64,000 bases of DNA from Phascolarctobacterium sp. (GTDB taxonomy: Bacteria > Bacillota > Negativicutes > Acidaminococcales > Acidaminococcaceae). Positions 1 to 64,000 of this stretch are shown here, piece after piece. Positions within the stretch are counted from its first letter, which is position 1, and each line of letters opens with the position of its first letter. A program made the position numbers and the translations under genes. The notes under the pieces are model-generated. The model was not told where the DNA came from, did no database searches, and saw nothing but the letters and a program-made list of their open reading frames with translations. The DNA lies in contig JAUNOC010000007.1 in the NCBI GenBank assembly GCA_030531205.1, forward strand, positions 2,073 through 66,072, given 5' to 3'.

Positions 1-28
1 AAATTCTGAATCCTGATTTCTGATTCCT
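1..28 (-). repeat. Degenerate heptanucleotide-periodic tract (AAATTCT GAATCCT GATTTCT GATTCCT) directly downstream of the minus-strand CDS stop; cut by the window edge
   Basis: 7-nt periodicity read directly. The reverse complement AGGAATC AGAAATC AGGATTC matches the heptamer type at 32181-32285. Confidence 0.5.
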
Positions 29-21069: not shown

Positions 21070-22155
21070 ATGCTGACTAAAAATGTTGTAGAATTTTTAT
21101 ATTCCACCGCTTCTATGCAACGGTGGAACGACCATATCAGGGTGGACGGCTTCACAGAACTGGACAAGCAGGCACACAAGGCAATGATTCTTTATGTCTT
21201 GGGCAGACACGAAGAAGACGAAGGGACAAAACCTAACTGGCGGGTTTTGGTGGAAGGGCTTATCTTTGAATATATCCACCGTTCTTTTCTGACGGACATC
21301 AAGCCGCCAGTCTTTCACGAATTAGTGAGAGAGTGCAAAAGGGAACTGAATGATTGGGTTTATAAACAAGTTGACGAAAGAGTGCCCGACCTGGACAAGG
21401 GACTGCGAAGCCGTATGGAAGATTGGTTTGACAAAAGCGACAACCCGTTGGAAAAGCAGTTGGTGCGTGCCGCACACTATTTGGCAACCCAGTGGGAATT
21501 TGCGGTCATCTATCGTTTGAACGAGGGCCGTTACGGCATTGAGGAAACTAAAAAAGAAATAGAGTCAGAACTCTTAAACCACAAGAATTTGGCAGGCACA
21601 CGCCAAGTTGTTTTTGGCGGGCCCACCAAAAATTTTATTGATTTAGTCGGTCAACTGCGTTATCAAAAACGCTGGGCACAAAGCGAACGGCTGCCCAGCA
21701 CCAGCGTTTTAGGGCATAGTTTGATTGTCGCCATGTTTGGCTATATGTGCAATTTGCAGCGTGGCCGCAAGGATGCAGAAACATTGGAAGATTTTTGGCG
21801 TGGGCTGTTTCATGACTTGCCGGAAGTTTTGACCAGGGATATTGTCAGCCCGGTCAAGAAGAATGTGGCAGGATTGGATGAAGTAATAAGCAGGGTGGAG
21901 AATAAACTCATTAACGAAAAAATTTTACCGCTTTTGCCGGAACACTGGCGTAAGGATATGCTTCGCATCACGCAAGGATTTGATGCCGCATCGTTGATGA
22001 AAGCGTGTGACAATTTGGCTGCCTATATGGAAGTCAAACTCAGTCAGGAAAGCGGTGTTACCAGCAGGCATATGGAGGAAGCCGCCAAAGCGATGGAAAA
22101 GCAATATAAGGATAAAGTTATAGACGGAATTGACTTTGGGAAACTGTTTGTGTAA
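21070..22155 (+). CDS. HD-domain phosphohydrolase family protein
   Basis: 361 aa. ...LGHSLIVAMF... and ...FHDLPEVLTRDIVSPVK... resemble HD-superfamily metal-binding motifs. Specific function unknown. Confidence 0.6.
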   Translation: MLTKNVVEFLYSTASMQRWNDHIRVDGFTELDKQAHKAMILYVLGRHEEDEGTKPNWRVLVEGLIFEYIHRSFLTDIKPPVFHELVRECKRELNDWVYKQVDERVPDLDKGLRSRMEDWFDKSDNPLEKQLVRAAHYLATQWEFAVIYRLNEGRYGIEETKKEIESELLNHKNLAGTRQVVFGGPTKNFIDLVGQLRYQKRWAQSERLPSTSVLGHSLIVAMFGYMCNLQRGRKDAETLEDFWRGLFHDLPEVLTRDIVSPVKKNVAGLDEVISRVENKLINEKILPLLPEHWRKDMLRITQGFDAASLMKACDNLAAYMEVKLSQESGVTSRHMEEAAKAMEKQYKDKVIDGIDFGKLFV

Positions 22156-22187
22156 TTAGCAATTAGTAATGAGTAATTAGTAATTGT
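22153..22187. repeat. Heptamer tract TAATTAG CAATTAG TAATGAG TAATTAG TAATTGT, starting with the TAA stop of the upstream gene
   Basis: 7-nt periodicity read directly. An inverted counterpart lies at 22659-22680, and the same type recurs at 63983-64000. Confidence 0.7.
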
Positions 22188-22404
22188 GGTAAAATGTTCC
22201 GTTGATTAGATTTTTGGGTTTCAGGTGTGTGGAGTTTTGCAAACCCTCGTCCGCCCATAAAGGGGTAGACAGTCCGGTGGACTGTCGCCGAGAAATTTGG
22301 GCTTGTCCAGCGAGGTAAAAGACCGACACAGGTTTTAAGGTCGGTGGTGGGGTGAGCAATTATGCGGAGGATAATGAAAAGATAAAAAATTAAAGCTTAA
22401 AGTT
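22186..22404 (+). repeat. Partial element copy: TIR-like end plus conserved module Y
   Basis: GTGGTAAAATGTTCCGTTGATTAGA matches the family TIR. 22217-22368 aligns with 40316-40420 and part of 32326-32400. Confidence 0.7.
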
Positions 22405-22658
22405 ATGGTAAGATGTTCCTGAGATTATAGCAGGATAGTTAGTATAGCGCGAACTTAAGGCCCCTTGGTGAAGGGGCTGTCAGCGATAGGAACATAGGTG
22501 GCTGACTGAGGATTGGGAACTTCGCATTATGCGAAAGTATCGCTTTAATCTGCACCCCCAGTCGCCTTTCTATGTTCCTTTAGGCGCCAGCCCCCGCAAA
22601 GGCGGGGGCTACTCATGTTCCTGTAATCTGTAATATAATCATAGGAACATATCACCAT
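22405..22658 (+). mobile_element. Complete 254-bp TIR-bounded non-coding element (MITE-like), copy A2
   Basis: The left end ATGGTAAGATGTTCCTGAGATTATA matches the reverse complement of the right end, ATGGTGATATGTTCCTATGATTATA. Internal GC hairpins. No ORF with an SD. Confidence 0.75.
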
Positions 22659-22708
22659 AATTAGTCATTACTAATTCCCTTAACACCTGAAACCTGACAC
22701 CTGAAAAA
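22659..22708. repeat. Heptamer tracts flanking copy A2 on the right (AATTAGT CATTACT ...; CTGAAAC CTGACAC CTGAAAA)
   Basis: 7-nt periodicity. These are the reverse complements of the TAATTAG-type and AGGTNTC-type heptamers on the left side. Confidence 0.65.
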
Positions 22709-22852: not shown

Positions 22853-24088
22853 ATGGATTTATTTGAGATGGCCAAAGTTCCTATGGCCGCTGCTGAAAAA
22901 GCAATGAACCTTGACCCCGGTGCTGCAGCAATCATTGCAGAGCCCGAGCGTGTTTTGGAAGTACATATTCCCGTAAGAATGGATGATGGTTCCCTGAAAG
23001 TATTTACCGGTTTCCGTGCCCAACACAGCACAGTGCTTGGCCCGGCAAAGGGCGGTGTACGTTATCACCCCTCAGTTTGTTTGGACGAAGTAAAAACCTT
23101 GAGTTTCTGGATGACCTGTAAATGCGCAGTTGCCGGCTTGCCCTATGGCGGCGGCAAAGGCGGTATTATCTGTGACCCGCAAAAAATGAGTCAAAGAGAA
23201 TTAGAGAGAATGACCCGTGGTTACATTGACCGTATTGCTCCCTGTATCGGCGAGAAATTGGATATTCCTGCCCCTGATATGAACACCAATGGTCAGGTAA
23301 TGGCGTGGATGATGGACGAATACAGCAAGATTAAAAACCAATATGAACCGGGCTTTATCACCGGCAAACCTTTGGGCATGGGCGGCTCTGAAGGCCGCAC
23401 TGCCGCTACCGGTTTGGGTGTAGTGGTTGCAGCAATGGAAGCAATGAAGGTTAAGAAAATTGACCCCAAGAAAGCAACCGTTGCCGTGCAAGGCTATGGT
23501 AATGTAGGCAGTTGGACTGCTAAACACTTTGCCAAGAGAGGTTGCAAAGTGGTGGCACTTTCCGATATCAAGGGCGGCATCTATAACCCTAAAGGATTTG
23601 ATATGAAGAAATTAGATGCTTACTATGAAAAGAAGAGAACATTACACGGCTTCCCCGGCGCTAAAGAAATCACCAATGCAGAACTCCTGGCATTGCCCGT
23701 AACCGTTTTGGCACCCTGTGCAATGGAATTGCAACTGACCAAAGACAATGCGGACAAAGTAAGGGCAAAGATGATTGTGGAAGGCGCTAACGGGCCTACC
23801 ACTCCGGATGCAGACAAGGTATTTGACAAGAAAGGTATTTTTGTAGTGCCTGATATTCTTGCCAACGGCGGCGGTGTAACCGTATCCTATTTTGAATGGG
23901 TGCAGAACCTGTACCGTTATTTCTGGACTGAAAAAGAAGTTGTAGAAAAACAGACCGAAATGATGAAACGGGCATTCAAGAATGTTTATGAAACATCCAA
24001 AAAATATAAAGTTAATATGCGTGTGGCCGCATATTGCGTAGCATTGAATGCAATGGCAATGCCGATGAAAATGCGTGGCATTTATTGA
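22853..24088 (+). CDS. gdh: Glutamate dehydrogenase (Glu/Leu/Phe/Val dehydrogenase family)
   Basis: 411 aa. KGGVRYHP and GLPYGGGKGG motifs, plus the GYGNVG dinucleotide-binding motif. Confidence 0.92.
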   Translation: MDLFEMAKVPMAAAEKAMNLDPGAAAIIAEPERVLEVHIPVRMDDGSLKVFTGFRAQHSTVLGPAKGGVRYHPSVCLDEVKTLSFWMTCKCAVAGLPYGGGKGGIICDPQKMSQRELERMTRGYIDRIAPCIGEKLDIPAPDMNTNGQVMAWMMDEYSKIKNQYEPGFITGKPLGMGGSEGRTAATGLGVVVAAMEAMKVKKIDPKKATVAVQGYGNVGSWTAKHFAKRGCKVVALSDIKGGIYNPKGFDMKKLDAYYEKKRTLHGFPGAKEITNAELLALPVTVLAPCAMELQLTKDNADKVRAKMIVEGANGPTTPDADKVFDKKGIFVVPDILANGGGVTVSYFEWVQNLYRYFWTEKEVVEKQTEMMKRAFKNVYETSKKYKVNMRVAAYCVALNAMAMPMKMRGIY

Positions 24089-24089
24089 T

Positions 24090-24120
24090 AAAAAAATCCG
24101 CCGAAAGGCGGATTTTTTGT
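24090..24120 (+). terminator. Rho-independent terminator after gdh
   Basis: AATCCGCC gaaa GGCGGATT followed by TTTTT. Confidence 0.85.
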
Positions 24121-24134
24121 TGCGGCGGTGCCAC

Positions 24135-24191
24135 AATGAAAAGTTAAAAGTTAAAAATGAAAAATTATGGTAGGATGTTCCTGTGATTATA
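24135..24191 (+). repeat. Heptamer tract (GAAAAGT TAAAAGT TAAAAAT GAAAAAT) plus a solo element TIR
   Basis: ATGGTAGGATGTTCCTGTGATTATA at 24167-24191 matches the family TIR. No core or second TIR follows. Confidence 0.7.
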
Positions 24192-24206
24192 TTTCAGAAT
24201 GTTTTA

Positions 24207-24215
24207 TGATATAAT
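24207..24215 (+). promoter_or_regulatory. Extended -10 promoter element TGATATAAT
   Basis: Fits the TGnTATAAT consensus, 44 nt upstream of the HAD-like CDS. The same 19-nt block recurs at 26001-26020. Confidence 0.45.
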
Positions 24216-24258
24216 ATTAAAATAACCATTCAAAAAATAATTAAGCGGAGTATAAGAA

Positions 24259-25329
24259 ATGAAAAATTTATTGTTGGCTTGTTTGACAGTTTTATATCTA
24301 TTGGCAAACACTTGTCCTGTTGTCCAGGCCATGTGTCGGGAAGACATAGCAAAGATAAATATCAGACGGGAAAAACATTTTAAGTATTGGACGGCGGATT
24401 CAAATGCTAAAAAAATTTTGGTTGAATATGTTAAGGATGTTGTTAATCCCAACAGCCAAAATTTTATCCCCGTGCCGGAGAGGATTGCGGTATTTGATTG
24501 TGACGGCACTTTGATTGGTGAGCGTAACCCTTACTATTTTGAAGGACTGATGCTTTTGTACCGTAATGCCGACCCCAATGTACCTCTAAAATGCAAAAAT
24601 GCAAAAGCAACGGCTCAAATAAGGTCAATAATTGACGGAGGTTCTATGCCGTCACAGGTGTGGCAGGAATTGGAACAGGCATATGTGGACTGTTTAGCGG
24701 GGCAGACACCTGAGGAGTACAGGGAATATGTACGGCATTATATAACTACCGAAAAGGTTGAAGGTTATTCCAATCTTAAAATTGGGGAAGAGTTCTTTTT
24801 GCCCATGGTTGAAATAGTATCTTATCTGCGGAATAACAAGTTTTCAATATATATTGTTACGGGGAGCGAGCGGGACGAAATGCGTGTTTATTGTGAACCG
24901 CTGAAGATACCCTATCAAAACATAATTGGCAGTGACCACAGCATTACAACGGAGAAAATGGGAAGTTCTGACAGCAGCAGATATTTTTATGGTGCTGCCG
25001 GAAATGAAAAAATAGTGCGTGGCAACGAACTGACTGCAAAAAATCTTAATTTCAACAAAATTATCGCCATGAACAGGGAGATTGGCATGCGTCCTGTGCT
25101 GGCATTTGGCAATGGCTCCGGTGATATGGGAATGTTCAATTATACGGTTATGAATAATAAGCACCGTACTTTGGCTTTTGCGGTGTTGTGCGATGACACG
25201 GAACGGGAAAACGGAAGTTTGAAAAGTGCGGAGAAGATGCGGAAGAATTGTGAAAAATATGGATGGATTCCCATTTCTATGAAAAATGACTTTGCCACTA
25301 TTTATGGCTATGATGTGAAAAAACTATAA
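24259..25329 (+). CDS. Secreted HAD-superfamily hydrolase (SerB-like phosphatase family)
   Basis: N-terminal signal-like segment MKNLLLACLTVLYLLANTCPVVQA. HAD motif I FDCDGTL and the C-terminal GNGSGDMGM motif. Confidence 0.7.
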   Translation: MKNLLLACLTVLYLLANTCPVVQAMCREDIAKINIRREKHFKYWTADSNAKKILVEYVKDVVNPNSQNFIPVPERIAVFDCDGTLIGERNPYYFEGLMLLYRNADPNVPLKCKNAKATAQIRSIIDGGSMPSQVWQELEQAYVDCLAGQTPEEYREYVRHYITTEKVEGYSNLKIGEEFFLPMVEIVSYLRNNKFSIYIVTGSERDEMRVYCEPLKIPYQNIIGSDHSITTEKMGSSDSSRYFYGAAGNEKIVRGNELTAKNLNFNKIIAMNREIGMRPVLAFGNGSGDMGMFNYTVMNNKHRTLAFAVLCDDTERENGSLKSAEKMRKNCEKYGWIPISMKNDFATIYGYDVKKL

Positions 25330-25359
25330 TTACTGCTCACTGCATTTTTCTGACGAGTA

Positions 25360-25419
25360 AAAATAAAAAAAGCGCCAAAATTATATACACTTGACCCTAA
25401 ATGTATATAATTTTGACGC
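25360..25419 (-). terminator. Minus-strand-oriented rho-independent terminator
   Basis: A 19-bp AT-rich stem (GCGCCAAAATTATATACAC / ATGTATATAATTTTGACGC, 2 mismatches). On the minus strand it is followed by TTTTTTTATTTTT. There is no T-run on the plus strand. Confidence 0.5.
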
Positions 25420-25458
25420 TAAAGCAAAAAGCAAAAGGAAAAAATTTTTACGTGATGT

Positions 25459-25499
25459 CCAATCTGATATCAGATTGGGGTAAGTCTGATATCAGATTG
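25459..25499. promoter_or_regulatory. Palindrome pair U1: a 20-bp perfect palindrome plus a 12-bp core copy
   Basis: CCAATCTGATATCAGATTGG (25459-25478) and TCTGATATCAGA (25485-25496). Confidence 0.6.
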
Positions 25500-25514
25500 A
25501 GCGTTAAAAAAATT

Positions 25515-25545
25515 AATTAGCACGCAAGTGCTAATTTTTATTTTC
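25515..25545. terminator. Bidirectional terminator-like hairpin
   Basis: AATTAGCAC gcaa GTGCTAATT, flanked by AAAAAAA upstream and TTTATTTT downstream. Confidence 0.6.
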
Positions 25546-25590
25546 TGATTGAAATCATAAAAATTATTTTGTGGCGAACGCCGAAGGCGA

Positions 25591-25606
25591 AATCTTATAT
25601 AAGATT
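25591..25606. promoter_or_regulatory. 16-bp perfect palindrome of the same motif class
   Basis: AATCTTATATAAGATT. Confidence 0.55.
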
Positions 25607-25653
25607 GAACATACACCGAAAGAAAAATTTTGTAAAACTTTTGGTGATAGCTG

Positions 25654-25691
25654 AATATCATATGAGATTGGGTGCAATCTCATATGATATT
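25654..25691. promoter_or_regulatory. Palindrome U2: 17-bp perfect inverted repeat with a 4-nt loop
   Basis: AATATCATATGAGATTG ggtg CAATCTCATATGATATT. Like U1, it is followed by RRCGTTAAAAAAAT. Confidence 0.6.
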
Positions 25692-25718
25692 GGACGTTAA
25701 AAAAATAAATGCCATGTT

Positions 25719-25818
25719 TGCCCTCTTGGTGAAGAGGGTGGATTGCCCATAGGAACATAGAAGGGCAAGACGGGTGATTGCTCACTGCGAAGTTCTCAAC
25801 CCCTTCACCAAGGGACCT
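25719..25818 (-). repeat. Core-only fragment of the element family (inverted relative to copy A2)
   Basis: CCCTCTTGGTGAAGAGGGTGGATTGCCCATAGGAACATAGAAGGGCAAGACGGGTGATTGC... aligns with 28704-28790 and with the reverse complement of 40525-40583. Confidence 0.7.
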
Positions 25819-25837
25819 TTCTTATTTTTTCTCTTAC

Positions 25838-25965
25838 TATGTATAATAGACATGAGAATGAATTTTATAACCAAAATGGCAGAAAAATTTTAATTTTCTT
25901 TATTATATATAATAGACACGAGTTTTGCTTTTGCAACCAAAATGGGAAAGAAAATCTCTAATTTC
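25838..25965 (+). repeat. Two tandem ~61-62-nt direct repeats, 66-bp period
   Basis: TATGTATAATAGACATGAG...AACCAAAATGGCAGAAAAATTTTAATTTTC compared with TATATATAATAGACACGAG...AACCAAAATGGGAAAGAAAATCTCTAATTTC. Confidence 0.6.
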
Positions 25966-26007
25966 ACGATTAAAGTATAGTTTCTGTTTCATTTGGTGTA
26001 GTTTTTA

Positions 26008-26016
26008 TGATATAAT
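26008..26016 (+). promoter_or_regulatory. Extended -10 promoter element TGATATAAT upstream of the DUF2075-like gene
   Basis: Fits the TGnTATAAT consensus. Embedded in GTTTTTATGATATAATATT, which is near-identical to 24201-24219. Confidence 0.45.
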
Positions 26017-26107
26017 ATTTATATCTATTCTCGCCCCCAGTCAGGGGAGGGGTTGTTTGCAGTTGTAAGTTAGATAAATGTGTAGAAAGGATATCTGCAT
26101 AAATATT

Positions 26108-28099
26108 ATGGCTAAATATACATTTGCAACCAAAGAAGGTAAGGCATATTATTACAATTCAATACCGGATTTTATTAAAGATGATGGTAATAGCATAATA
26201 GGGCAGTTAGTAGAACATTCTTTTCAAGTTGAAAAGGAGCAAACAGATGCTTGGAGTTATCAAATTACTGAATTGCAAACTCGTTTACAGGATGCAGGAG
26301 TGAGTGGCGATATCATTTTTGAATATGACATTGTACGTCTTGGTAAACGCATTGATGTCATTTTATTAATACGTCACATGGTATTTTCTATTGAGTTTAA
26401 AAACGGTAAGAATATTTTTACTGCGCAAGACGCTCAGCAAGCAGAAGACTATGCTTTAGATATTAAAAACTTTCATAAAGAGTCCGAAAATCTATATGTT
26501 TGCCCCATATTGGTAGCTACACATGCTCCTAAATATCATAAAGAGCAAGAACTTAAATGTTATACTGATAAACAAGTGTATTTGCAAAGGGAAAATATTG
26601 AGACATTAATACCTAAAGTAAATGAAGTGGCTAGTAAATATGGCGATGATGAAAAGATTGATTTTGAAAAGTGGTTTAATTCGCCATATTACCCAACACC
26701 GACTATTATTGCAGCAGCCGTTGAAGCATATAAAACCCATAATATTAGTGATATAGCAAAATCAGCTGCGGGACAAGCAAATATAGAAGCATGTGAAAAG
26801 GAAATTAATGACATTATTGAGTACGCTAAAAGTAATCATAAAAAATGTATTTGTTTTGTAACAGGTGTTCCTGGTGCAGGTAAAACGCTTGTTGGTTTAG
26901 ATGTAGTAGCAAAAAACCTTGATAAAGGCGAAAAAAATATGAGCGTTTATTTATCTGGTAATGGTCCATTAGTTGAAGTTTTACAAGAAGCACTTATTAA
27001 GAGTACGAAGATAAAAGGAACTACAAAACGCGAAACGCAAACGGCTGTATCAGCGTTAATTCAAGGAAGTTATGCATTCAAAAAAGCGCATGCTAATGAT
27101 GAAAATCCCATACCTGAAAATATCTTGATTTTTGATGAGGCACAACGTGTTTGGAATGTTCAAAAGATGGCATCTAAACACAAAACAGAAGGAATGGCTG
27201 TCAGTGAATCGTATTTATTTTATAAGATTATGGACAGAAAAAAGGACTGGGCAGTAATGATTTGTTTAGTAGGGCTCGGGCAAGATATTTATGATGGTGA
27301 AGTAGGCATTAATGAGTGGTTTAGATGTGGCATTAATGATTTTAAAGATTGGGAAATATTCTATTCGTCAGATATTTTTGATCAATTAGAAGATAAGAAC
27401 ATTGATAGACAAGCGATTGAAGGATGTAATAGATGTCATATTAAATTAGGATTACATTTAAAAACGTCTGTAAGGTCATTCCGTGCGGATAAGCAGAGTG
27501 CTTTTGTAGATAATTTGTTGGCAAATAATTTAGTAGATGCATCTAAACTATATGAACAAATAGTGCAGAAATATCCTTTATATATTACTCGTGATTATTC
27601 ATTGGCTAAATGGTGGGTACGTCAACAGGTTAGAGGTTCACAACGTTGTGGCGTTTTGGCAAGCAGTAGTGCACAGCGGTTAAAACCAGAGGGAATTTAT
27701 ATTCCTAAAGATATTGATGTTAAAAATTGGTTTTTAGCTCCAAGCACGGATTTGCGGTCGTCAAATAGATTGGAAGTAGTTGCAAGTGAGTTTGATGTAC
27801 AAGGATTAGAAATTGATTGGGGACTTGTATGTTGGGACGCTGATTTAAGACGTAAAGGTGATGATTGGGATTACTACAATTTTAGAGGAGCAAAATGGAC
27901 TAAACGAAACAAAATAGAAACGCAGCGCTATTTGTTAAATTCTTATCGTGTGTTATTAACACGTTCAAGACAAGGTATGGTAATTTTTGTTCCTAAGGGT
28001 GTAAATAAAGATGAGGATGAAACAAGAAACTATAAGTTTTATGATGGTATTTATAATTACTTGTTGTCATGTGGTATTAAAGAACTAAAGAAAAAGTGA
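26108..28099 (+). CDS. PD-(D/E)xK-like nuclease domain fused to a P-loop SF1-like ATPase (DUF2075 / Schlafen group-3 helicase-like)
   Basis: N-terminal ...EYDIVRLGKRIDVILLIRHMVFSIEFKNG...DYALDIKNFH. Walker A is GVPGAGKT and Walker B is ILIFDEAQ. The C-terminal YRVLLTRSRQGMVIF resembles helicase motif VI. Visibly AT-rich. An alternative ATG exists at 26078. Confidence 0.75.
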   Translation: MAKYTFATKEGKAYYYNSIPDFIKDDGNSIIGQLVEHSFQVEKEQTDAWSYQITELQTRLQDAGVSGDIIFEYDIVRLGKRIDVILLIRHMVFSIEFKNGKNIFTAQDAQQAEDYALDIKNFHKESENLYVCPILVATHAPKYHKEQELKCYTDKQVYLQRENIETLIPKVNEVASKYGDDEKIDFEKWFNSPYYPTPTIIAAAVEAYKTHNISDIAKSAAGQANIEACEKEINDIIEYAKSNHKKCICFVTGVPGAGKTLVGLDVVAKNLDKGEKNMSVYLSGNGPLVEVLQEALIKSTKIKGTTKRETQTAVSALIQGSYAFKKAHANDENPIPENILIFDEAQRVWNVQKMASKHKTEGMAVSESYLFYKIMDRKKDWAVMICLVGLGQDIYDGEVGINEWFRCGINDFKDWEIFYSSDIFDQLEDKNIDRQAIEGCNRCHIKLGLHLKTSVRSFRADKQSAFVDNLLANNLVDASKLYEQIVQKYPLYITRDYSLAKWWVRQQVRGSQRCGVLASSSAQRLKPEGIYIPKDIDVKNWFLAPSTDLRSSNRLEVVASEFDVQGLEIDWGLVCWDADLRRKGDDWDYYNFRGAKWTKRNKIETQRYLLNSYRVLLTRSRQGMVIFVPKGVNKDEDETRNYKFYDGIYNYLLSCGIKELKKK

Positions 28100-28161
28100 A
28101 TTGGTTTGTCCTTCCTTTAATGCGGGGGTTATAACAGGTGATATGTGGTTGTTTATTTTGG

Positions 28162-28399: not shown

Positions 28400-28591
28400 A
28401 TGTTGGAATGTCCACGCTGCGGCAGCAGCAAATTGGTTACGAAGAGTGACAAGCATAATTTTTGGTTGGGTACTGACAAACTGAAGATTAAAAAGGATTA
28501 TGGCTGGGGTATGGGAAATACCAGTGTGCCAGATGATAAGGTGGTTTGTCAGGAATGTGGTTATGTGTTCAAACCCGGATGGAGTAGGTAA
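28400..28591 (+). CDS. Small zinc-ribbon protein (63 aa)
   Basis: CPRCG ... CQECG (two CxxC pairs). AAGGAGG lies 8 nt upstream of the ATG at 28400. A strong terminator follows immediately. Confidence 0.6.
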   Translation: MLECPRCGSSKLVTKSDKHNFWLGTDKLKIKKDYGWGMGNTSVPDDKVVCQECGYVFKPGWSR

Positions 28592-28620: not shown

Positions 28621-28935
28621 TTAGTTAAAAGAGATAAGAGATGGTAAGAGGTATCAGGTGTCAGGTTTCAGGTTAGAGGGAAGTTAGCATCAAGCGGACT
28701 TTGCCCTCTTTGTAAAGAGGGTGGATTGCCTAAAGGAACATAGAAAGGCAAGACGGGTGATTGCATACTGCAAAGTTCTCAATCCTCAGTCGGCTACGCC
28801 GCCAGCTCCTTCACCAGGGAGCCAAAAGTTAGCAATATGGTGAACTTAAATAATTTCAATTACAGGAACATATTACCATCATTGTGAATTATGCATTTTG
28901 AATTGTGAATTACAATTGTGAATTATCAATAATAG
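28621..28935 (-). mobile_element. Degenerate element copy D: heptamer tract, inverted core, one TIR, heptamer tract
   Basis: AGGTATC AGGTGTC AGGTTTC AGGTTAG AGGGAAG (28649-28683). The core 28684-28850 aligns with the reverse complement of copy A2. The TIR ...CAGGAACATATTACCAT ends at 28879. ATTGTGA ATTATGC ATTTTGA ATTGTGA... spans 28881-28929. Confidence 0.65.
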
Positions 28936-30738: not shown

Positions 30739-32180
30739 TGGCTAAATATATTACAGTTATCGGCTTGGAAGTACATGCTGAATTGAAAACTAAATCCAAG
30801 GCGTTCTGCTCTTGTTCCACAGAGTTCGGCGCTACTCCCAATACTCATGTTTGCCCTGTGTGCTTGGGTATGCCAGGAGCGTTGCCGGTGTTGAACAAGC
30901 AGGTGGTAGAGTTTGCTATTCGTGCGGGTTTGGCTTTGAACTGCGAAATTCAAAAGTTCAATAAGTTTGACAGAAAAAATTATTTTTATCCTGACTTGGC
31001 AAAGAATTATCAAATTAGTCAGTGGGAAGAACCGATTTGCCTCAAGGGGCATATTGATATTAATGTGAATGGGGAGGAAAAGCGGATTGGTATTACCCGT
31101 ATTCACATGGAAGAAGATGCGGGGAAATTGGTACACAGCGGTGCCACTATTTCCACTTCCGACAGCAGTGCGGTGGACTATAACCGTGCCGGTGTTCCGT
31201 TGATTGAAATTGTGTCTGAGCCGGATATGCGGAGTGCGGAAGAAGCCCGTGCTTATATGGAGAACTTGAAAGCAATTTTGGAATACACGGATGTGTGCGA
31301 TTGCAAGATGCAGGAAGGTTCCTTGCGTTGTGATGCCAATATTTCCATTATGCCGGAAGGTGCAAAGGAATTTGGTACCCGTGCGGAAATTAAAAACTTG
31401 AATTCTTTTAAGGCATTGGTGCGTGCCATTGAATATGAAGTTGAGCGTCAGAAAGAGGTTATTGAAGATGGTGGTCATGTGGTGCAGGAAACCCGCACTT
31501 GGGATGATGCCAAAGGTGTAACTTTGAGTATGCGTTCCAAAGAGGAAGCCCATGATTACCGTTATTTCCCTGAACCGGATTTGGTGCCTGTGGAAATTGA
31601 TGATGCGTGGATTAATCGGGTTAAGAGTGAATTGCCGGAATTGCCGGTACAACGTCAGGCACGCTTGATGGAGCAGTTCGGTTTGCCGAGTTATGATGCG
31701 GGACTTTTGGTTTCTTCCAAAGCGATGGCAGAATATTTTGATAAGGCAGTTAAAACTGCCAAGGATGCGAAGGCGGTTTCCAACTGGCTTTTAGGTGATG
31801 TTTCCGCTTGGCTCAATAATGAGAATAAAGAGATTGGGGACTTTGTGGTTATACCGGAACATTTGGCAGAGTTGACAAATTTGGTTAAAGACGGAGTGTT
31901 GAGTTCCAAATTGGCAAAGAAAGTTTTTGCTGAAATGTTGAAGGGCAACAAGGCACCGAAAGATTTAGTTAAGGAATTGGGTTTGGAGCAGGTGAGTGAT
32001 ACGGGTGCCATTGAAAAATTTGTAGATGAGGCATTGGCAGAAAACCCGCAATCAGTTGCGGACTACAAGGCAGGCAAGGATAAGGCGATAGGTTTCTTGG
32101 TCGGACAGATTATGAAGAAATCCAAGGGCAAGGCAAATCCGGGCATGGTGCAGCAATTATTGAAGCAGAAACTTCAATAA
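30738..32180 (+). CDS. gatB: Asp/Glu-tRNA amidotransferase subunit B
   Basis: 480 aa. ...[18 protein letters not shown]... is canonical GatB. The start overlaps the gatA stop. Confidence 0.95.
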
Positions 32181-32282
32181 TTCAGGTTTCAGGTATTAGG
32201 TGTCAGGTTAGAGGATAAAGGAATTAGGATTCAGGATTTAGGGGAAGGATAAGGCGTAGAGCGTAGGGCATAAGGCATAGGG
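32181..32282. repeat. About 15 consecutive degenerate heptamers (TTCAGGT-type) immediately after the gatB stop
   Basis: TTCAGGT TTCAGGT ATTAGGT GTCAGGT TAGAGGA TAAAGGA ATTAGGA TTCAGGA TTTAGGG GAAGGAT AAGGCGT AGAGCGT AGGGCAT AAGGCAT AGGGAAG. Confidence 0.75.
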
Positions 32283-32541
32283 AAGGTAAGATGTTCCTGT
32301 GATTATAGCAGGAAAGTTGGCAGAGTGCGAATTCTCGTCCGCCCATTGAGGGGCGGGGAACCGCCTATGGGAGCGTGTTGGCGGTGGTGGGGTGGCGACT
32401 GCATAGCGAAAGTATCGCTTTAATCGCCACCCTCAGTCAGTTGCTACGCAACTGCCAGCCCCCTCTAAGGGGGCACGAGAGTCAGCATTGTGCTAAATTT
32501 TAATCATTTTAATCATTTTAATCAAAGGAACATATCACCAT
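32283..32541 (+). mobile_element. Complete 259-bp TIR-bounded non-coding element, copy E
   Basis: The left end AAGGTAAGATGTTCCTGTGATTATA matches the reverse complement of the right end, ATGGTGATATGTTCCTTTGATTA. The core shares modules with copies A1, A2, F and G. Confidence 0.75.
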
Positions 32542-32583
32542 AATTTTTCATTTTTAACTTTTAATTTTTAATTTTTAATTGTT
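32542..32583. repeat. Heptamer tract CATTTTT AACTTTT AATTTTT AATTTTT AATTGTT
   Basis: 7-nt periodicity. It is the reverse complement of the tract type at 24138-24165. Confidence 0.65.
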
Positions 32584-32597
32584 AAAGGAACAGAAGT

Positions 32598-35054
32598 ATG
32601 AAGTATGGTTTGACTTCCGCCGAGGCGAAGGCCTCGGCGGAATTATACGGGAAAAACACTTTATCCAGTTTGCCCAGGGCAACTTTTTGGGATAAGTTTA
32701 AGGACAATTTGCGTGACCCGATTATTGAAATTTTAATCGTGGCCTTGATAGCAGATTGTCTTTTTGCTTATATGGGTTACGGCGATTGGCTGGAAGTTTT
32801 GGGTATTTTAGTGGCAATTTTACTTGCCACTTTTGTTTCCACTTACTCGGAATATTCCAACGAAACTGCTTTCCAAAAATTGCAGGAGGAAGCCAGCCGC
32901 ATTTATTGTCGGGTGTGGCGGGATGGGGAACCTACGCAGATTCGCATTGATGAACTTGTAGTTGGTGATGTGATTATGCTGGGGGCAGGTGATAAGATCC
33001 CTGTGGACGGTGTACTGGTGAAAGGGAATTTAGGCCTTGACCAAAGTGCGTTGAACGGAGAAAGTGATGAGGCGGAAAAGGTTGTTGCCCCCACCGATTT
33101 TCAATGGGACGGTAAAATTGATTTTCTCAATGAGTACCGGTTATATCGTGGCAGCGTGGTGGTCAGCGGTGATGCCATAATGGTTGCCAAATGTGTTGGG
33201 GATAATAGCGTTTACGGTCAGCTGACTAAGGAACTGCAGATTGAGGAGCGTCCAAGCCCTTTGAAAATTAAACTGGAGCATCTTGCCAAGCAGATTGCTA
33301 AATTTGGGTATGCCGCAGGTTTTCTGATTGCGGCGGCGGTATTCATAGAGAAATATTTGGCAAAGGAAAATTATTTTGCCCAACCTATGCAGATTATTGG
33401 CGGAGATATGGTCAGTGCCATTATTGTGGGTATTGTTATTATTGTAATGGCGGTGCCGGAGGGGCTGCCTTTAATGATTGCCATTGTCAGCAGTTTGAAT
33501 ATGAAAAAGATGTTGCATGACAATGTGCTGGTGCGGAAATTGGTAGGTATTGAAACAGCAGGCAGTTTGAATTTGCTTTTTACAGATAAGACGGGGACTA
33601 TTACCAAAGGGCATTTGGAAGTTGTGAATTTTCTTACGGGCAACCGTGAAGAGTTCAAAACTTTTGCAGAATTGCCGGCAACGATAAAGAAATATACTTA
33701 TGAAAATATTGTGGTGAATACGAGTGCCACCGTGACGGAAGATGCCATTCTTGGCGGCAATATGACGGAGAAGGCACTTTCGGATTATATCGGAAAATAT
33801 CGTACAGGGGTTCCCCAACGGTTGCAGTTCCGTCCTTTTAATTCAGCTGATAAATATAGTTTGGCAGTAACAGATGGAATGGAGAAATTGTTAGTGAAGG
33901 GTGCGCCGGAAAAACTTTTGCTCAGTACAGATTACTATTGGGATAAAGACGGGCAACGTCAGATATTGACGGATGCCATGAAGCAGAACCTGGATTACCG
34001 TATGGTAGAATTGGCACGGCAGGCAATCCGTATGTTGGCACTTTGCACAGCAGAGCAGGAACAGAATGGTGTGGAGAAGGGACTGACATTAGTAGGCATT
34101 CTCTGTATTCGTGACGAAGTCCGTGCTGAGGCGGTGAGTGCAATTAAAGCAGTACAGGATGCGGGTGTACAGGTGGTTATGATTACAGGGGACAGAAAAG
34201 AAACCGCCGCCGCTATTGCCAAAGATGCAGGATTGCTTCGTCATCCGGAAGAATTGGTGTGGACGAGTGCAGAGTTAGCCGCTTTTAGTGATGAGGAAGT
34301 AAAATTGATGTTGCCCAAACTGCGGGTGGTGGCACGGGCGTTGCCAATGGACAAGAGCCGCTTGGTGCGTATTGCACAGGAACTCAATTTAGTTGTTGGT
34401 ATGACGGGCGATGGTGTGAATGATTCGCCTGCATTGAAAATGTCCGATGTTGGTTTTGCTATGGGCAGCGGTACGGATGTGGCGAAGGAAGCGGGCGACA
34501 TTGTTATTCTTGATGATAATTTTTTAAGTATCAAACAAGCAATTCTTTATGGTCGTACTATTTATAAATCCATCTGCAAATTTGTTACCTTCCAACTGAC
34601 TATCAATGTGGGGGCGGTGGCAGTGAATTTAATTGCACCTTTCTTGGGAGTGGAACATCCTTTAACGATTATTCAAATTCTTTGGATTAATTTGGTGATG
34701 GATACTTTGGCTGCCATTGCTTTTGGCGGCGAGCCGGCTTTGGAAAAGTATTTGCAGGAAGTGCCAAAAAAGCGGACGGAGCGGATAGTCAGCCGTTCTA
34801 TGTTGACACATATTGGCATTGCCGGTGCGGTAACTTTACTGGTATTCAGTTATTTTGTGCCGGAGAGCCGACACATCTATTTTGAAAATGGCATTTTCTT
34901 TACCGTTTTCATTTTGCTGGCTGTTGTCAATGCCTTCGTGGTGCGGGCAAACGGTTGGCGGGTGTGGGAAGGTTTGAGTAAGAATAGGGGCTTTTTGTCC
35001 ATAATGTTTTTGATTGTGGTAGTTCAAGTCGCACTTTTGAAAATTGTATATTAG
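32598..35054 (+). CDS. Cation-transporting P-type ATPase (Ca2+-ATPase-like, P2 type)
   Basis: 818 aa. DKTGTIT phosphorylation motif, TGDGVNDSPALK hinge motif, multiple TM segments. Confidence 0.9.
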   Translation: MKYGLTSAEAKASAELYGKNTLSSLPRATFWDKFKDNLRDPIIEILIVALIADCLFAYMGYGDWLEVLGILVAILLATFVSTYSEYSNETAFQKLQEEASRIYCRVWRDGEPTQIRIDELVVGDVIMLGAGDKIPVDGVLVKGNLGLDQSALNGESDEAEKVVAPTDFQWDGKIDFLNEYRLYRGSVVVSGDAIMVAKCVGDNSVYGQLTKELQIEERPSPLKIKLEHLAKQIAKFGYAAGFLIAAAVFIEKYLAKENYFAQPMQIIGGDMVSAIIVGIVIIVMAVPEGLPLMIAIVSSLNMKKMLHDNVLVRKLVGIETAGSLNLLFTDKTGTITKGHLEVVNFLTGNREEFKTFAELPATIKKYTYENIVVNTSATVTEDAILGGNMTEKALSDYIGKYRTGVPQRLQFRPFNSADKYSLAVTDGMEKLLVKGAPEKLLLSTDYYWDKDGQRQILTDAMKQNLDYRMVELARQAIRMLALCTAEQEQNGVEKGLTLVGILCIRDEVRAEAVSAIKAVQDAGVQVVMITGDRKETAAAIAKDAGLLRHPEELVWTSAELAAFSDEEVKLMLPKLRVVARALPMDKSRLVRIAQELNLVVGMTGDGVNDSPALKMSDVGFAMGSGTDVAKEAGDIVILDDNFLSIKQAILYGRTIYKSICKFVTFQLTINVGAVAVNLIAPFLGVEHPLTIIQILWINLVMDTLAAIAFGGEPALEKYLQEVPKKRTERIVSRSMLTHIGIAGAVTLLVFSYFVPESRHIYFENGIFFTVFILLAVVNAFVVRANGWRVWEGLSKNRGFLSIMFLIVVVQVALLKIVY

Positions 35055-40314: not shown

Positions 40315-40447
40315 AGGTTTCAGGTGTGTGGGGGTTATGCGAACCCTTGTCCGCCACTAAAGGGGCGGGGGACCGTCTAAAGGAACATAGAAGGACGGTG
40401 GTGGGGTGAGCAATTACGCTGATGCTAATGAAAAGATAATTAAAGTT
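40315..40447 (+). repeat. Module Y copy plus the AT-rich left extension of the next element
   Basis: GGTTTCAGGTGTGTGG...GGTGGTGGGGTGAGCAATTACGC...TAATGAAAAGATAATTAAAGTT aligns with 22217-22404. Confidence 0.7.
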
Positions 40448-40641
40448 ACGGTAAGATGTTCCGGTGATTAGAACATTGGATATTGATGTGCTGGGTTCAT
40501 TAGTTCAGTTGGAGGGAGCGACCCACCCCGTCTTGCCCTTCTGTGTTCCTGTAGGCAATCCACCCCGCCCACGCCTGGGCGGGAAAATGCAGTTCGCAAT
40601 AAGCGTAGTTTTTTGTTTTTATCAATGGAACATATCACCAT
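40448..40641 (-). mobile_element. Complete 194-bp TIR-bounded non-coding element, copy F (core inverted relative to A2)
   Basis: The left end ACGGTAAGATGTTCCGGTGATTAGA matches the reverse complement of the right end, ATGGTGATATGTTCCATTGATAA. Confidence 0.7.
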
Positions 40642-40679
40642 AGTTTTAAGTTTTCCATTTTTAATTTTTAATTTATAAA
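40642..40679. repeat. AT-rich heptamer-like tract running up to the prmC ATG
   Basis: AGTTTTA AGTTTTC CATTTTT AATTTTT AATTTAT. Confidence 0.55.
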
Positions 40680-43938: not shown

Positions 43939-43971
43939 TAATGAAAAGCTAAAAACTTAAAACTTAAAGTT
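43939..43971. repeat. AT-rich heptamer tract (TAATGAA AAGCTAA AAACTTA AAACTTA AAGTT)
   Basis: 7-nt periodicity. Shares the TAATGAAAAG...TTAAAGTT pattern with 22372-22404 and 40426-40447. Confidence 0.6.
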
Positions 43972-44198
43972 GTGGTAATATGTTCCTGTGATTATATTAG
44001 ATTACCCCTTCATTTTGGGAGGGGAGGGCCGATACTGGAACGTGGACCGGCGGGGTGAGCGATTATGTAGTGACAAAGTTTTCGGAGTAATCTGCACCCC
44101 CAGTCGCAACCAAGTTCCGAAAAGCGACAGCCCCCGCAAGGGCGGGGGCTACTTATGTTCCTGTAACTTGTTATATAATCACCGGAACATTTTACCAT
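43972..44198 (+). mobile_element. Complete 227-bp TIR-bounded non-coding element, copy G
   Basis: The left end GTGGTAATATGTTCCTGTGATTATAT matches the reverse complement of the right end, ATGGTAAAATGTTCCGGTGATTATAT (about 26 nt). Confidence 0.75.
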
Positions 44199-44232
44199 CT
44201 TTCTTAATTATGAATTCTTAATTCATAATTGA
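44199..44232. repeat. Heptamer tract TTAATTA TGAATTC TTAATTC ATAATTG
   Basis: 7-nt periodicity read directly. Confidence 0.6.
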
Positions 44233-63022: not shown

Positions 63023-63079
63023 ATTTAGGTACCAGGTTTCAGGTGTCAGGTTATAGGGAAGAACAAGGGGTTATGGTTT
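63023..63079. repeat. Heptamer tract AGGTACC AGGTTTC AGGTGTC AGGTTAT AGGGAAG, continuing with GGTT-type heptamers to the next start codon
   Basis: Near-identical to 28649-28683. Begins just after the lpxD stop. Confidence 0.65.
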
Positions 63080-63985
63080 GTGGTTGGTTATTGGGTTATT
63101 AAATTTGTAAGTAAGGTTTTATGTTGCCTGCCTGTCGGCTGGCAGCATAAAATTGGAAATATATTGGGAAATATTGCCGTAAAAATTTGCCCGTCTTGGC
63201 GTATGGATATGGCAAGAGCCAATATCCGTGAATGTTTGGGGGTGGATGCGGAACGAGCGGATAAAATCGCCAAAGAGAGCGTCAAACGCTTTGGCAGGAT
63301 GGCTGTGGAAGTTCTTTGCTTTCCTAACCTGAACAAGGATAATGTTTTGGATTCTGTGGATATGGAAGGCATTGAACATTTGCAAAATGCTTGCAGTTTG
63401 GATAAAGGTGTCATTATGGTTACAGGGCATTTTGGTAATTGGGAAATGCTAGGAGCCATTGTAGGTCTTTTAGGTTATCCGGTGCTTTCCATAGTCAGAC
63501 ATCAGAATAAGGGCAGTATGAACCGTTTGATCAATGAATATAGGGAAATGGTGGGGCAGACCATTGCCTATAATCGTGGCGAAAACAATCTTTTGCAGGT
63601 TGTGCGGATGTTAAAAGCAAAGAAGATTGTAGGAATTTTGTATGATCAGGATACTAATGATATCGGCGTAAAGTTGGATTTATTTGGAAAAACATGTATA
63701 GTTCCAGATGGGGCTGTGGCATTGAGCAGAATTAACAAAGCGCCCATTGTTCCAATCTTTATTCATAACAGGGATGAGGGAAAATTTAAAGTTAAAATTT
63801 ATCCGGCACTTACTTGTGAAAGTAAAGATAAGTACGATGAAGTAATGGGAAAATTAGTAGATATTCTTGAACAGGAAGTGCGTGAAGACCCGGCCATGTG
63901 GTTTTGGGTACATGACCGTTGGAAAGACGGTCATCAAAGATTTGATAAAGAATATGACGAAAATAAGCATGGGCATCATCCATAA
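63080..63985 (+). CDS. Lipid A biosynthesis (Kdo2-lipid IVA) late acyltransferase, LpxL/HtrB family
   Basis: 301 aa. HX4D-type motif TGHFGNWEM. GTG start. Lies next to lpxD. Confidence 0.8.
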   Translation: MVGYWVIKFVSKVLCCLPVGWQHKIGNILGNIAVKICPSWRMDMARANIRECLGVDAERADKIAKESVKRFGRMAVEVLCFPNLNKDNVLDSVDMEGIEHLQNACSLDKGVIMVTGHFGNWEMLGAIVGLLGYPVLSIVRHQNKGSMNRLINEYREMVGQTIAYNRGENNLLQVVRMLKAKKIVGILYDQDTNDIGVKLDLFGKTCIVPDGAVALSRINKAPIVPIFIHNRDEGKFKVKIYPALTCESKDKYDEVMGKLVDILEQEVREDPAMWFWVHDRWKDGHQRFDKEYDENKHGHHP

Positions 63986-64000
63986 TTAGTAGTTAGTAAT
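63983..64000. repeat. Start of another TAATTAG-type heptamer tract (TAATTAG TAGTTAG TAAT...), cut by the window edge
   Basis: Same heptamers as 22153-22187. It again starts with the TAA stop codon of the upstream gene. Confidence 0.55.

Follow-up and report, generated by a model that had tools for sequence, protein, structure and literature searches.

Bacterial heptanucleotide repeats have been known since 1990, when the STRRs (short tandemly repeated repetitive sequences) of cyanobacteria were reportedly described by Mazel. Here we analyse tracts of degenerate 7-nt units in a 64,000-nucleotide stretch of a Phascolarctobacterium sp. genome (contig JAUNOC010000007.1, positions 2,073 to 66,072; hereafter the window), where they adjoin small elements with terminal inverted repeats (TIRs), for example 3' of gatB. 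Accounts of the heptamers in Beggiatoaceae (PMC4679880) and Nostoc (bioRxiv 10.1101/2022.06.06.494920) treat them as free arrays and suspect a binding partner, and in these recent works the origin and binding partner of the repeats are still called unknown. The closest described systems are the intervening sequences (IVSs) of 23S rRNA genes, in which the protein family PF05635/S23p was first seen. The family is large and widespread and is related to Avd, a protein of diversity-generating retroelements; Avd excepted, these four-helix-bundle proteins are otherwise uncharacterised. In the Coxiella IVS, the S23p open reading frame (ORF) lies behind two to three GACAGAT heptamers and one degenerate copy, in a strain-dependent number, and the heptamers lie inside a 28-bp terminal stem cut by RNase III (PMC4990558). 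The S23p protein of Xanthomonas is a toroidal homopentamer (PMC4990558).

The elements described here resemble the S23p IVSs of Coxiella burnetii and Leptospira in several respects. A cassette that takes the place of the gatB element in some strains encodes a protein of the same family, its ORF lies within TIRs that are predicted to form a stem and is sense to the host transcript and, as in Coxiella, strain-variable heptamers stand directly 5' of the start codon. In contrast to the IVSs, the window elements lie in the spacers of protein-coding operons rather than in rRNA helices, are ORF-less and multiplied to hundreds, and end in a fixed five-heptad arm and a 23-bp core; their arms are unpaired and their cores can form one-directional chains. 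All copies lie between protein-coding genes, and the window holds no rRNA. With the STRR, Beggiatoaceae and Nostoc heptamers they share degenerate tandem 7-nt intergenic units near start or stop codons, set head to tail as in STRRs and long simple sequence repeats (SSRs). Those repeats, however, are described as free direct arrays with a proposed regulatory role and, in the searchable literature, are unlinked to a gene cassette, a core or inverted pairing; in our analysis, such arrays on Nostoc plasmids are the arms of four-helix-bundle genes. Like bacterial MITEs (miniature inverted-repeat transposable elements) and mosaic repeats (Correia/NEMIS, BOX, BIME and the Neisseria NIME with dRS3), the elements are small, ORF-less, intergenic and multi-copy, with inverted ends, a modular mosaic make-up and strain-variable presence. 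Unlike them, they have ends built of tandem heptads, a trait foreign to classical MITE, REP or BOX families, as an earlier sequence-only reading of the window (the first-pass annotation) had rightly held for MITE and REP. Also unlike them, neither a target-site duplication nor a transposase partner was found, and the only gene-bearing relative encodes a four-helix-bundle protein. The terminal inverted repeats of Drosophila FB foldback transposons are themselves short tandem repeats whose number varies between copies; FB elements are eukaryotic, with far longer arms and other unit lengths, and no homology is implied.

Collectively, our results suggest, with a probability that we put at about 0.6, that the tracts are the terminal heptad arms of a small cassette-like family whose ancestral form would bear a PF05635/TIGR02436 four-helix-bundle gene. 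The window contains only ORF-less derivatives. Such descendants, with their strict five-heptad arm, would have reached hundreds of copies in one Negativicutes lineage.

Period-7 tracts and the five-heptad arm

The 105 bases 3' of the gatB stop (32181-32285) have an identity to themselves of 0.65 at lag 7 and 0.55 at lag 14. Dinucleotide-preserving shuffles of the same bases gave a lag-7 identity of 0.29 ± 0.05 (z 7.8), and 0 of 1000 were as high as the natural sequence. The lag-7 identity was 0.68-0.86 in 10 of 11 further tracts tested and 1.00 in the 14-nt tract at 43953; p was ≤ 0.044 for all 11, the three shortest (14-21 nt) being weak when taken singly. Tandem Repeats Finder independently called period 7 at nearly every tested tract. 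A lag scan of the whole window, at a threshold of at least 17 of 21 matches, returned eight regions at lag 7, three at lag 9 and two at lag 14 (inside lag-7 regions), and none at lags 2-6, 8, 10-13 and 15. All eight lag-7 regions are intergenic and in contact with an inverted-repeat element. Period 7 is the sole strongly over-represented period in the window.

One genome per species was then scanned with the core pattern GGTRDNATGTTCCNNTGATTA. This gave at least 93 matching stretches, about 75 of those listed coming from one Acidaminococcaceae genome (JAZLLX01) with a small number from related genomes. JAZLLX01 represents a sister species, since the window genes are 84-92% identical to it. In 590 kb of these related genomes, 270 regions were found at lag 7 versus 0-5 at each of lags 5-12; 246 of the 270 are intergenic and 134 lie no more than 15 bp from a core. 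The first-pass annotation had proposed that 7-bp-periodic tracts are attached to TIR elements and often begin at a stop codon, and had named two outcomes that would speak against it: periodicity no higher than in shuffled DNA, and tracts detached from the TIR elements. Neither was found, because the signal is far above that of shuffled DNA and is tied to the elements across the genome. Tracts begin at stop codons at 22153, 63983, 32181, 40315, 63024 and 1-28.

Alignment of the core ends revealed a strict architecture. Among the matches listed, 231 core ends were oriented inward; the 35 bases outside the core showed an identity of 0.646 at lag 7 and 0.618 at lag 14 compared to 0.24-0.37 at other lags, and bases -70 to -36 and the interior were near background. 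In 214 cores (again among the matches listed, with chance hits in unrelated taxa excluded and no further selection), A occupied position 2 of heptads -1 to -5 in 99, 90, 89, 86 and 80% of cases and of heptad -6 in 26%, which is background. In heptads -1 to -5, position 3 is a purine and position 5 is T or G, each in about 90% of cases, and C is almost absent from positions 2, 3 and 5. Because heptad -6 is at background, the arm consists of exactly five heptads nA(A/G)T(T/G)An in a fixed register with the 23-bp core. At least ten unit families follow this one frame (TAATGAG/TAATTAG, GAATTAA/GAATGCA, AAACTTA, AAGTTAT, CAAAGAA, TAAGGCG/TAGGGCA, TAACGCG, TAGGGAT, AAATGTG and AGTTAGA). The arms at both element ends read inward, one 35-nt arm can stand beside unrelated outer flanks, and one outer flank can stand beside different arms. 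The arms had been likened to variable microsatellites; this does not hold for their TIR-proximal part, which is a fixed five-heptad array with a shared degenerate consensus and constant register. As a separate observation, the core holds a three-codon mini-ORF, ATG TTC CNN TGA, behind a Shine-Dalgarno-like GGTRA; across 185 cores, its ATG, TTC and TGA show little or no variation, and the middle base of codon 3 is variable.

A second type of tract is made of AGG-type heptads nTnAGGn (TTCAGGT, ATTAGGA, TAAAGGA, TTTAGGG). These occur in runs at two sites, just within a core, before the conserved linker and GC-rich hairpin modules, or just outside an arm, where the last unit is TTTAGGG|gaa. Copy number is free in the outer tracts (3-12 units, ±1 between strains), whereas the inner arm is fixed at five. 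Both types are present 3' of gatB, where 15 consecutive heptamers had been read. The period stands, but the single run does not; there are two tracts with a 6-nt unit between them. The last six heptamers of that reading were 1 nt off the core register because this 6-nt unit joins the two tracts. The junction TTTAGGG|gaa was found again 5' of many arms. Cores also form one-directional chains (>><, >>><) with a spacing of 53-60 nt or 130-190 nt, and core clusters were sense-type relative to transcription in 33 cases versus 8 antisense-type (p = 1e-4).

An exact match to the GatC protein identified ten contigs that belong to the species of the window or to close strains. The gatB tract of contigs L096 and L099 has exactly one unit fewer; in both, three core-proximal inner units are replaced by six units of the TAATTCG/CAATGCG family, and the element is otherwise the same. 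L097 has lost a different single unit. The TAAGAGA-type unit 5' of gatC is present two, three or four times, the right arm there is 14 nt shorter in one strain and 13 nt longer in others, and the arm 3' of the acyltransferase gene has five or six units depending on the strain. Six of the seven indels (-7, -7, +7, +14, -14, -7, +13) are multiples of seven, in agreement with the predicted strain variation of heptamer copy number. In the sister species, the nine outer gatB units are 95% identical to those of the window (3 changes in 63) versus 88% for the gatB gene, and the inner arm and element differ from the window's. Several metagenome contigs (L102, L103, L150 and L153) break off within heptad arms or within the gatB tract; evidently, the heptad repeats break short-read assemblies, and they explain metagenome assembly breaks at these sites.

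Four-helix-bundle genes with heptamer arms

In contigs L095, L098 and L100 the gatB tract and element are absent and the slot is occupied by a cassette with a 117-aa ORF. The ORF belongs to PF05635 (23S rRNA intervening-sequence protein) and TIGR02436 (four helix bundle protein), and its product matches PDB entries 2RLD and 2GSC, with five chains deposited in each. The left arm of the cassette, directly 3' of the gatB stop, reads AATTAAA AATGAAA AACGAAA AATGAAA AATTGAG. It is followed by a core-like sequence, GGTAAAAAGTTCCAGTGATTGAA, that is identical to the window's core at 18 of 23 positions and whose GTG starts the ORF; the GTG of ...CCAGTGATT... is this ORF start, and the core includes the ribosome-binding region. 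The five heptads of L095 thus stand directly 5' of the core and GTG, comparable to the Coxiella heptamers by the ORF start, and the 3' part of the L095 cassette consists of a short hairpin and then the right arm of the window's gatB element. About 17 mini-elements of the sister genome are no more than a core and the 3' hairpin of the cassette. The hairpin shows compensatory changes, and a five-heptad arm precedes each mini-element. These sequence likenesses suggest that the ORF-less elements derive from the PF05635 cassette, a link that the first-pass annotation had missed.

When metagenome contigs were scanned for relatives of the 117-aa protein, 40 loci were obtained at 32-62% identity, 33 of which were measured. 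Among the loci with flanking sequence, nearly all had one heptamer array upstream and one downstream of the ORF, the latter reading as the reverse complement of the former. In flanks of 120 nt, lag-7 identity was 0.42 upstream and 0.41 downstream, compared to 0.24-0.31 at other lags and 0.25 at 580-700 nt away. Of the upstream flanks, 19 of 33 had a strong lag-7 window, as had 20 of 32 of the downstream flanks, versus 1 of 49 controls. When upstream arms were compared with reverse-complemented downstream arms, the median of the best 28-nt identity was 25, versus 18 in direct orientation.

Annotated plasmids carry homologues named 'four helix bundle protein', and clear heptamer arms were seen in 10 of the 11 organisms inspected. 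The arm units are AAGTCGG in Nostoc punctiforme, TAATTCG in Nostoc flagelliforme, AATCCCC/AATCGTA in Planktothrix, GGAAAGT in Treponema saccharophilum, GTGATTA (at least 16 units) in Bernardetia, AAGGATG in Chlorohelix, TAATTAG/GAATGAG in Monoglobus, CACTGGT (13 units) in Euhalothece, ATTTTAG in Gloeocapsa and, in Pseudanabaena, 7-nt units inside a 35-nt super-repeat. In a 50-kb slice of Nostoc punctiforme plasmid pNPUN01, lag 7 gave seven tracts and lags 4-6 and 8-12 gave none; five of the seven abut its two annotated four-helix-bundle genes. A gene of this family is bracketed by inverted heptamer repeats in at least five bacterial phyla. We found no paper on a general heptamer bracketing of four-helix-bundle genes, Coxiella aside, and no description of the ORF-less five-heptad family, in literature that was mostly non-subscription; the cross-phylum association of gene and heptamers appears to be previously undescribed.

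The surroundings of these genes were also recorded. In seven loci, armed four-helix-bundle genes sit between operon genes, often those of defence loci, with settings that include hsdS and hsdR, DISARM drmD and BREX pglX, a helicase and an N6-methylase, DUF1156 and Swt1-HEPN, and a site beside cas1. Others lie between an RND adaptor and permease, or before recF. At 159.5-163.2 kb of pNPUN01 (contig L163, 21500-25200) a tyrosine recombinase and XisH/XisI genes lie between the two four-helix-bundle genes, which have GGGTGTA-type and AAGTCGG-type arms, and Tn7-like transposition genes adjoin. About 115 bp away from one arm there is a third GGGTGTA array of like orientation, which resembles the core chains of the window.

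Possible mode of action and alternative explanations

Each end of the proposed cassette family comprises, from outside inward, an optional variable nTnAGGn tract, the five heptads and the 23-bp core. Arms change by whole-unit gain or loss, probably through slippage or unequal exchange, and by whole-arm swaps between copies, and these changes would account for the periodicity as well as for the many kinds of heptamer. The cassettes lie directly after stop codons and point with transcription; they would therefore be read through from the host gene, and the gene-bearing form probably relies on such host-operon read-through. In that form the inverted arms may pair into a long stem that delimits the ORF and, by analogy with Coxiella, could allow its release by RNase III. 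The arm, with its conserved number, register and base preferences, may be a recognition array that a multimeric protein reads heptad by heptad. In the ORF-less form, the cores would pair and leave the five-unit arms single-stranded for a putative unit-by-unit reading, the candidate reader being a pentameric four-helix-bundle protein. A physical precedent for heptad-wise reading is the omega repressor of pSM19035, which binds as one dimer per 7 bp on contiguous WATCACW heptads, direct or inverted. There, too, the 7-bp units are contiguous and their number matters; the consensus is another, and the resemblance would be one of possible working, not of family.

A wider proposal is more tentative, and we consider it possible without favouring it. 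TIGR02436/PF05635 genes might define pan-bacterial, operon-hitchhiking cassettes with inverted-heptamer ends, which together with their ORF-less offspring would be a major source of heptamer repeats, and whose pentamer would read one subunit per heptad. Cyanobacterial STRRs, the 7-nt excess among long SSRs, and heptamer stems in rRNA and RNase P RNA may then come from this source. In Acidaminococcaceae a toroidal pentamer may match five subunits to five heptads, much as TRAP and HutP rings read spaced triplets. The bracketing of one gene family by inverted heptamers in several phyla gives bacterial heptamer repeats a testable origin, makes this origin and the function of the S23p family experimentally approachable, and provides a simple mark by which annotators can recognise a new class of intergenic element.

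Several observations weigh against the cassette-family explanation. The 590-kb sample is enriched for elements, as its loci were picked by core match. Of its 270 heptamer tracts, 48 stand at more than 300 bp from any strict core. Apart from the gatB slot, a PF05635 ORF was present in neither the window nor the ~590 kb of sister-genome loci, and mobilisation in trans is unsupported for this reason. Common descent and gene conversion could partly lie behind the five-unit rule, and transcription orientation is confounded with replication orientation in this genome. Across 45 adjacent inverted core pairs, arm complementarity was 16.4/35 versus 17.3 ± 5.9 for random pairs. Shared direct words, as a target-site duplication would leave them, were not in excess in 43 pairs (3.65 versus 3.70 and 3.21 versus 3.22 at arm/core boundaries), the outer boundaries being fuzzy, and distant core pairs enclosed ordinary housekeeping ORFs and no transposase.

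Of the other explanations, the one that survives best, though we think it unlikely, is that the tracts are regulatory sites of the host mRNA, whose C-poor, purine-rich heptads bind a translation or stability factor (S1, a cold-shock protein or a CsrA-like protein) or act as a ribosome standby. Such a role was proposed for the Beggiatoaceae TAACTGA repeats (PMC4679880) and the Nostoc heptamers (bioRxiv 10.1101/2022.06.06.494920). It would suit tracts that run from stop codons to near the start of the next gene, the excess of sense clusters, AGG and GGA motifs spaced every 7 nt, a tract that is unpaired in the predicted fold, and the lpxD spacer tract that is invariant in 5 strains. However, the arms of both ends read inward, so half are antisense in any transcript, and whole tracts come and go between strains at an essential operon with the flanking genes unchanged. 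There is no known candidate factor either, the Rsm/Csr-type Rfam hits being at chance level only; no family of Rfam 15 reached its gathering score on the window elements, where solely chance-level hits at E ≤ 1 were obtained.

Slightly less probable still is that the tracts are plain microsatellites, a mutational by-product without a role, in which slippage favours 7-nt units and is stimulated by the adjoining hairpin elements. The 7-nt steps in copy number between strains and the 3- to 12-unit span of the outer AGG tracts are what slippage would give, and heptamers are the commonest long simple repeats in bacteria according to the passage of PMC4679880 that cites Mrazek 2007. This explanation does not account for an inner arm that always has five units in fixed register with position-specific bases across at least ten unrelated unit families, for identical 35-nt arms at many loci, or for the same architecture, with inverted arms, round one gene family in five phyla.

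The first-pass annotation had itself raised the idea that the arms on either side of a copy form a long stem by pairing, with a role as terminator or in mRNA stability. This is very improbable. Arms do pair round the ORF in the predicted folds of gene-bearing cassettes (a 37-bp stem with z -7.1 at locus L149, and likewise in L095). The ORF-less elements contradict it: the arms on their two sides are not systematically complementary, and an arm identity of at least 28/35 was reached by 0 of the 45 adjacent inverted pairs versus 5% of random pairs. A stem role cannot apply to the ORF-less elements because their end arms are not complementary. At gatB, a TAAGGCG-type arm faces an AAATTAA-type arm, and in the predicted fold of 32175-32600 (z -5.3) the cores pair and the heptad tract is unpaired, the arms remaining unpaired in the centroid fold. 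The composite locus at 22153-22708, whose arms had been called reverse complements, offers partial complementarity (22153/22691); the claim stands for about 21 nt (16-18 of 21) and fails for the rest.

Least probable of all, and by a wide measure improbable, are stacked 7-bp target-site duplications or footprints of repeated insertion and excision at one spot, which would fit a unit length constant at 7 and tracts directly adjoining the element ends but not arms that are inverted rather than direct at the two ends, boundaries without a common direct word, or units of one arm that differ in a patterned way.

Two further candidates were tried and rejected. For an IS256-type transposase as partner, the C-terminal Mutator fragment (PF00872) at 44-400 of contig L058, in the sister genome, stands close to copies of the core but is not bounded by them. 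For stop codons in three frames as the main cause of a period that three does not divide, enrichment was only mild (13 of 24 arm families versus 7.3 expected), with no strand asymmetry.

Features along the window

Nearly all genes of the window are on one strand. The GC skew of the window is strong, and its S10 leader is of the Clostridia type. The heptad tracts, cores and associated features are listed in Table 1.

Table 1. Positions of outer tracts, arms, cores and element interiors in the window.
Feature	Position	Strand	Remark
AGG-type tract AGGAATC AGAAATC AGGATTC	1..28	-	right after the stop of the minus-strand gene 29-667
Five-heptad arm, TAATTAG family	22153..22187	+	stop of upstream gene is the first triplet
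Core, first in a > > < chain	22188..22210	+	
Second arm (22372-22406) and core (22407-22429)	22372..22429	+	
Right core (22634-22656) and arm (22657-22691)	22634..22691	-	
Outer AGG-type tract, reversed: TTCAGGT GTCAGGT TTCAGGT	22685..22707	-	then a terminator-like hairpin
Solo arm (24134-24168) and core (24169-24191)	24134..24191	+	no partner
TAAGAGA-type units, then AGG-type AAGAGGT ... TAGAGGG	28629..28680	+	2 TAAGAGA-type units; 3-4 in other strains
Right core (28855-28877) and ATTGTGA-family arm (28878-28912)	28855..28912	-	arm -14/+13 nt among strains
Outer variable AGG-type tract, 9 heptads TTCAGGT ... TTTAGGG	32181..32243	+	begins one base past gatB TAA
6-nt junction GAAGGA	32244..32249	+	phase slip between outer tract and inner arm
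Inner five-heptad arm TAAGGCG TAGAGCG TAGGGCA TAAGGCA TAGGGAA	32250..32284	+	in register with core
Left 23-bp core (TIR) GGTAAGATGTTCCTGTGATTATA	32285..32307	+	
ORF-less interior	32308..32516	+	linker AAGTTGGCAGAGTGCGAA, GC-rich hairpin modules, 9-nt repeat ATTTTAATC x3
Right core GGTGATATGTTCCTTTGATTAAA	32517..32539	-	pairs with left core in predicted fold
Right five-heptad arm, inward: AAATTAA AAATTAA AAGTTAA AAATGAA AAATTAT	32540..32574	-	
AGG-type heptads at the opening of a hairpin module with an arm at its end	40315..40335	+	begin one base past TGA
Arm and left core	40415..40472	+	
Right core and arm	40617..40674	-	
AAACTTA-family arm and left core	43939..43996	+	
Right core and GAATTAA-family arm	44174..44231	-	
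Stand-alone AGG-type tract filling the lpxD-acyltransferase spacer	63024..63058	+	identical in 5 strains
TAATTAG-family arm start	63983..64000	+	stop codon is the first triplet

The arm that begins at 63983 is cut by the window's end; in other contigs it is followed by a core and a short element, and its units number five or six depending on the strain. The perfect 9-nt repeat ATTTTAATC stands in three copies at 32497-32524, beside the right gatB core, and in two copies in contigs L094, L096 and L099. A sub-threshold Rfam match to RsmY covers the right end of the composite element at 22588-22692 on the minus strand (20.8 bits, where the gathering score is 57; E 0.12); it probably mirrors the spaced GGA motifs of the heptads.

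A low-GC island extends over 24000-28100 (GC 0.34-0.37 versus ~0.44 elsewhere) and includes two large ORFs, at 24259-25329 and 26078-28099. Its long AT-rich spacer contains near-identical palindromes, tccaatctgatatcagattgg, at ~25453-25500 and ~25655-25700, and a core-less copy of the hairpin module at ~25716-25815. Between the island and the gatC element, at 28400-28591, lies a Cys-rich 63-aa ORF (CxxC ... CxxC) with its own terminator. It is present in most strains; in L097, comEC lies directly 5' of the heptad tract. Further along, at 54488-54602, a coding 24/48-nt tandem repeat, GAAGAAGAAGCAAAACG, gives a Glu/Lys/Ala-rich protein repeat and is unrelated to the heptads.

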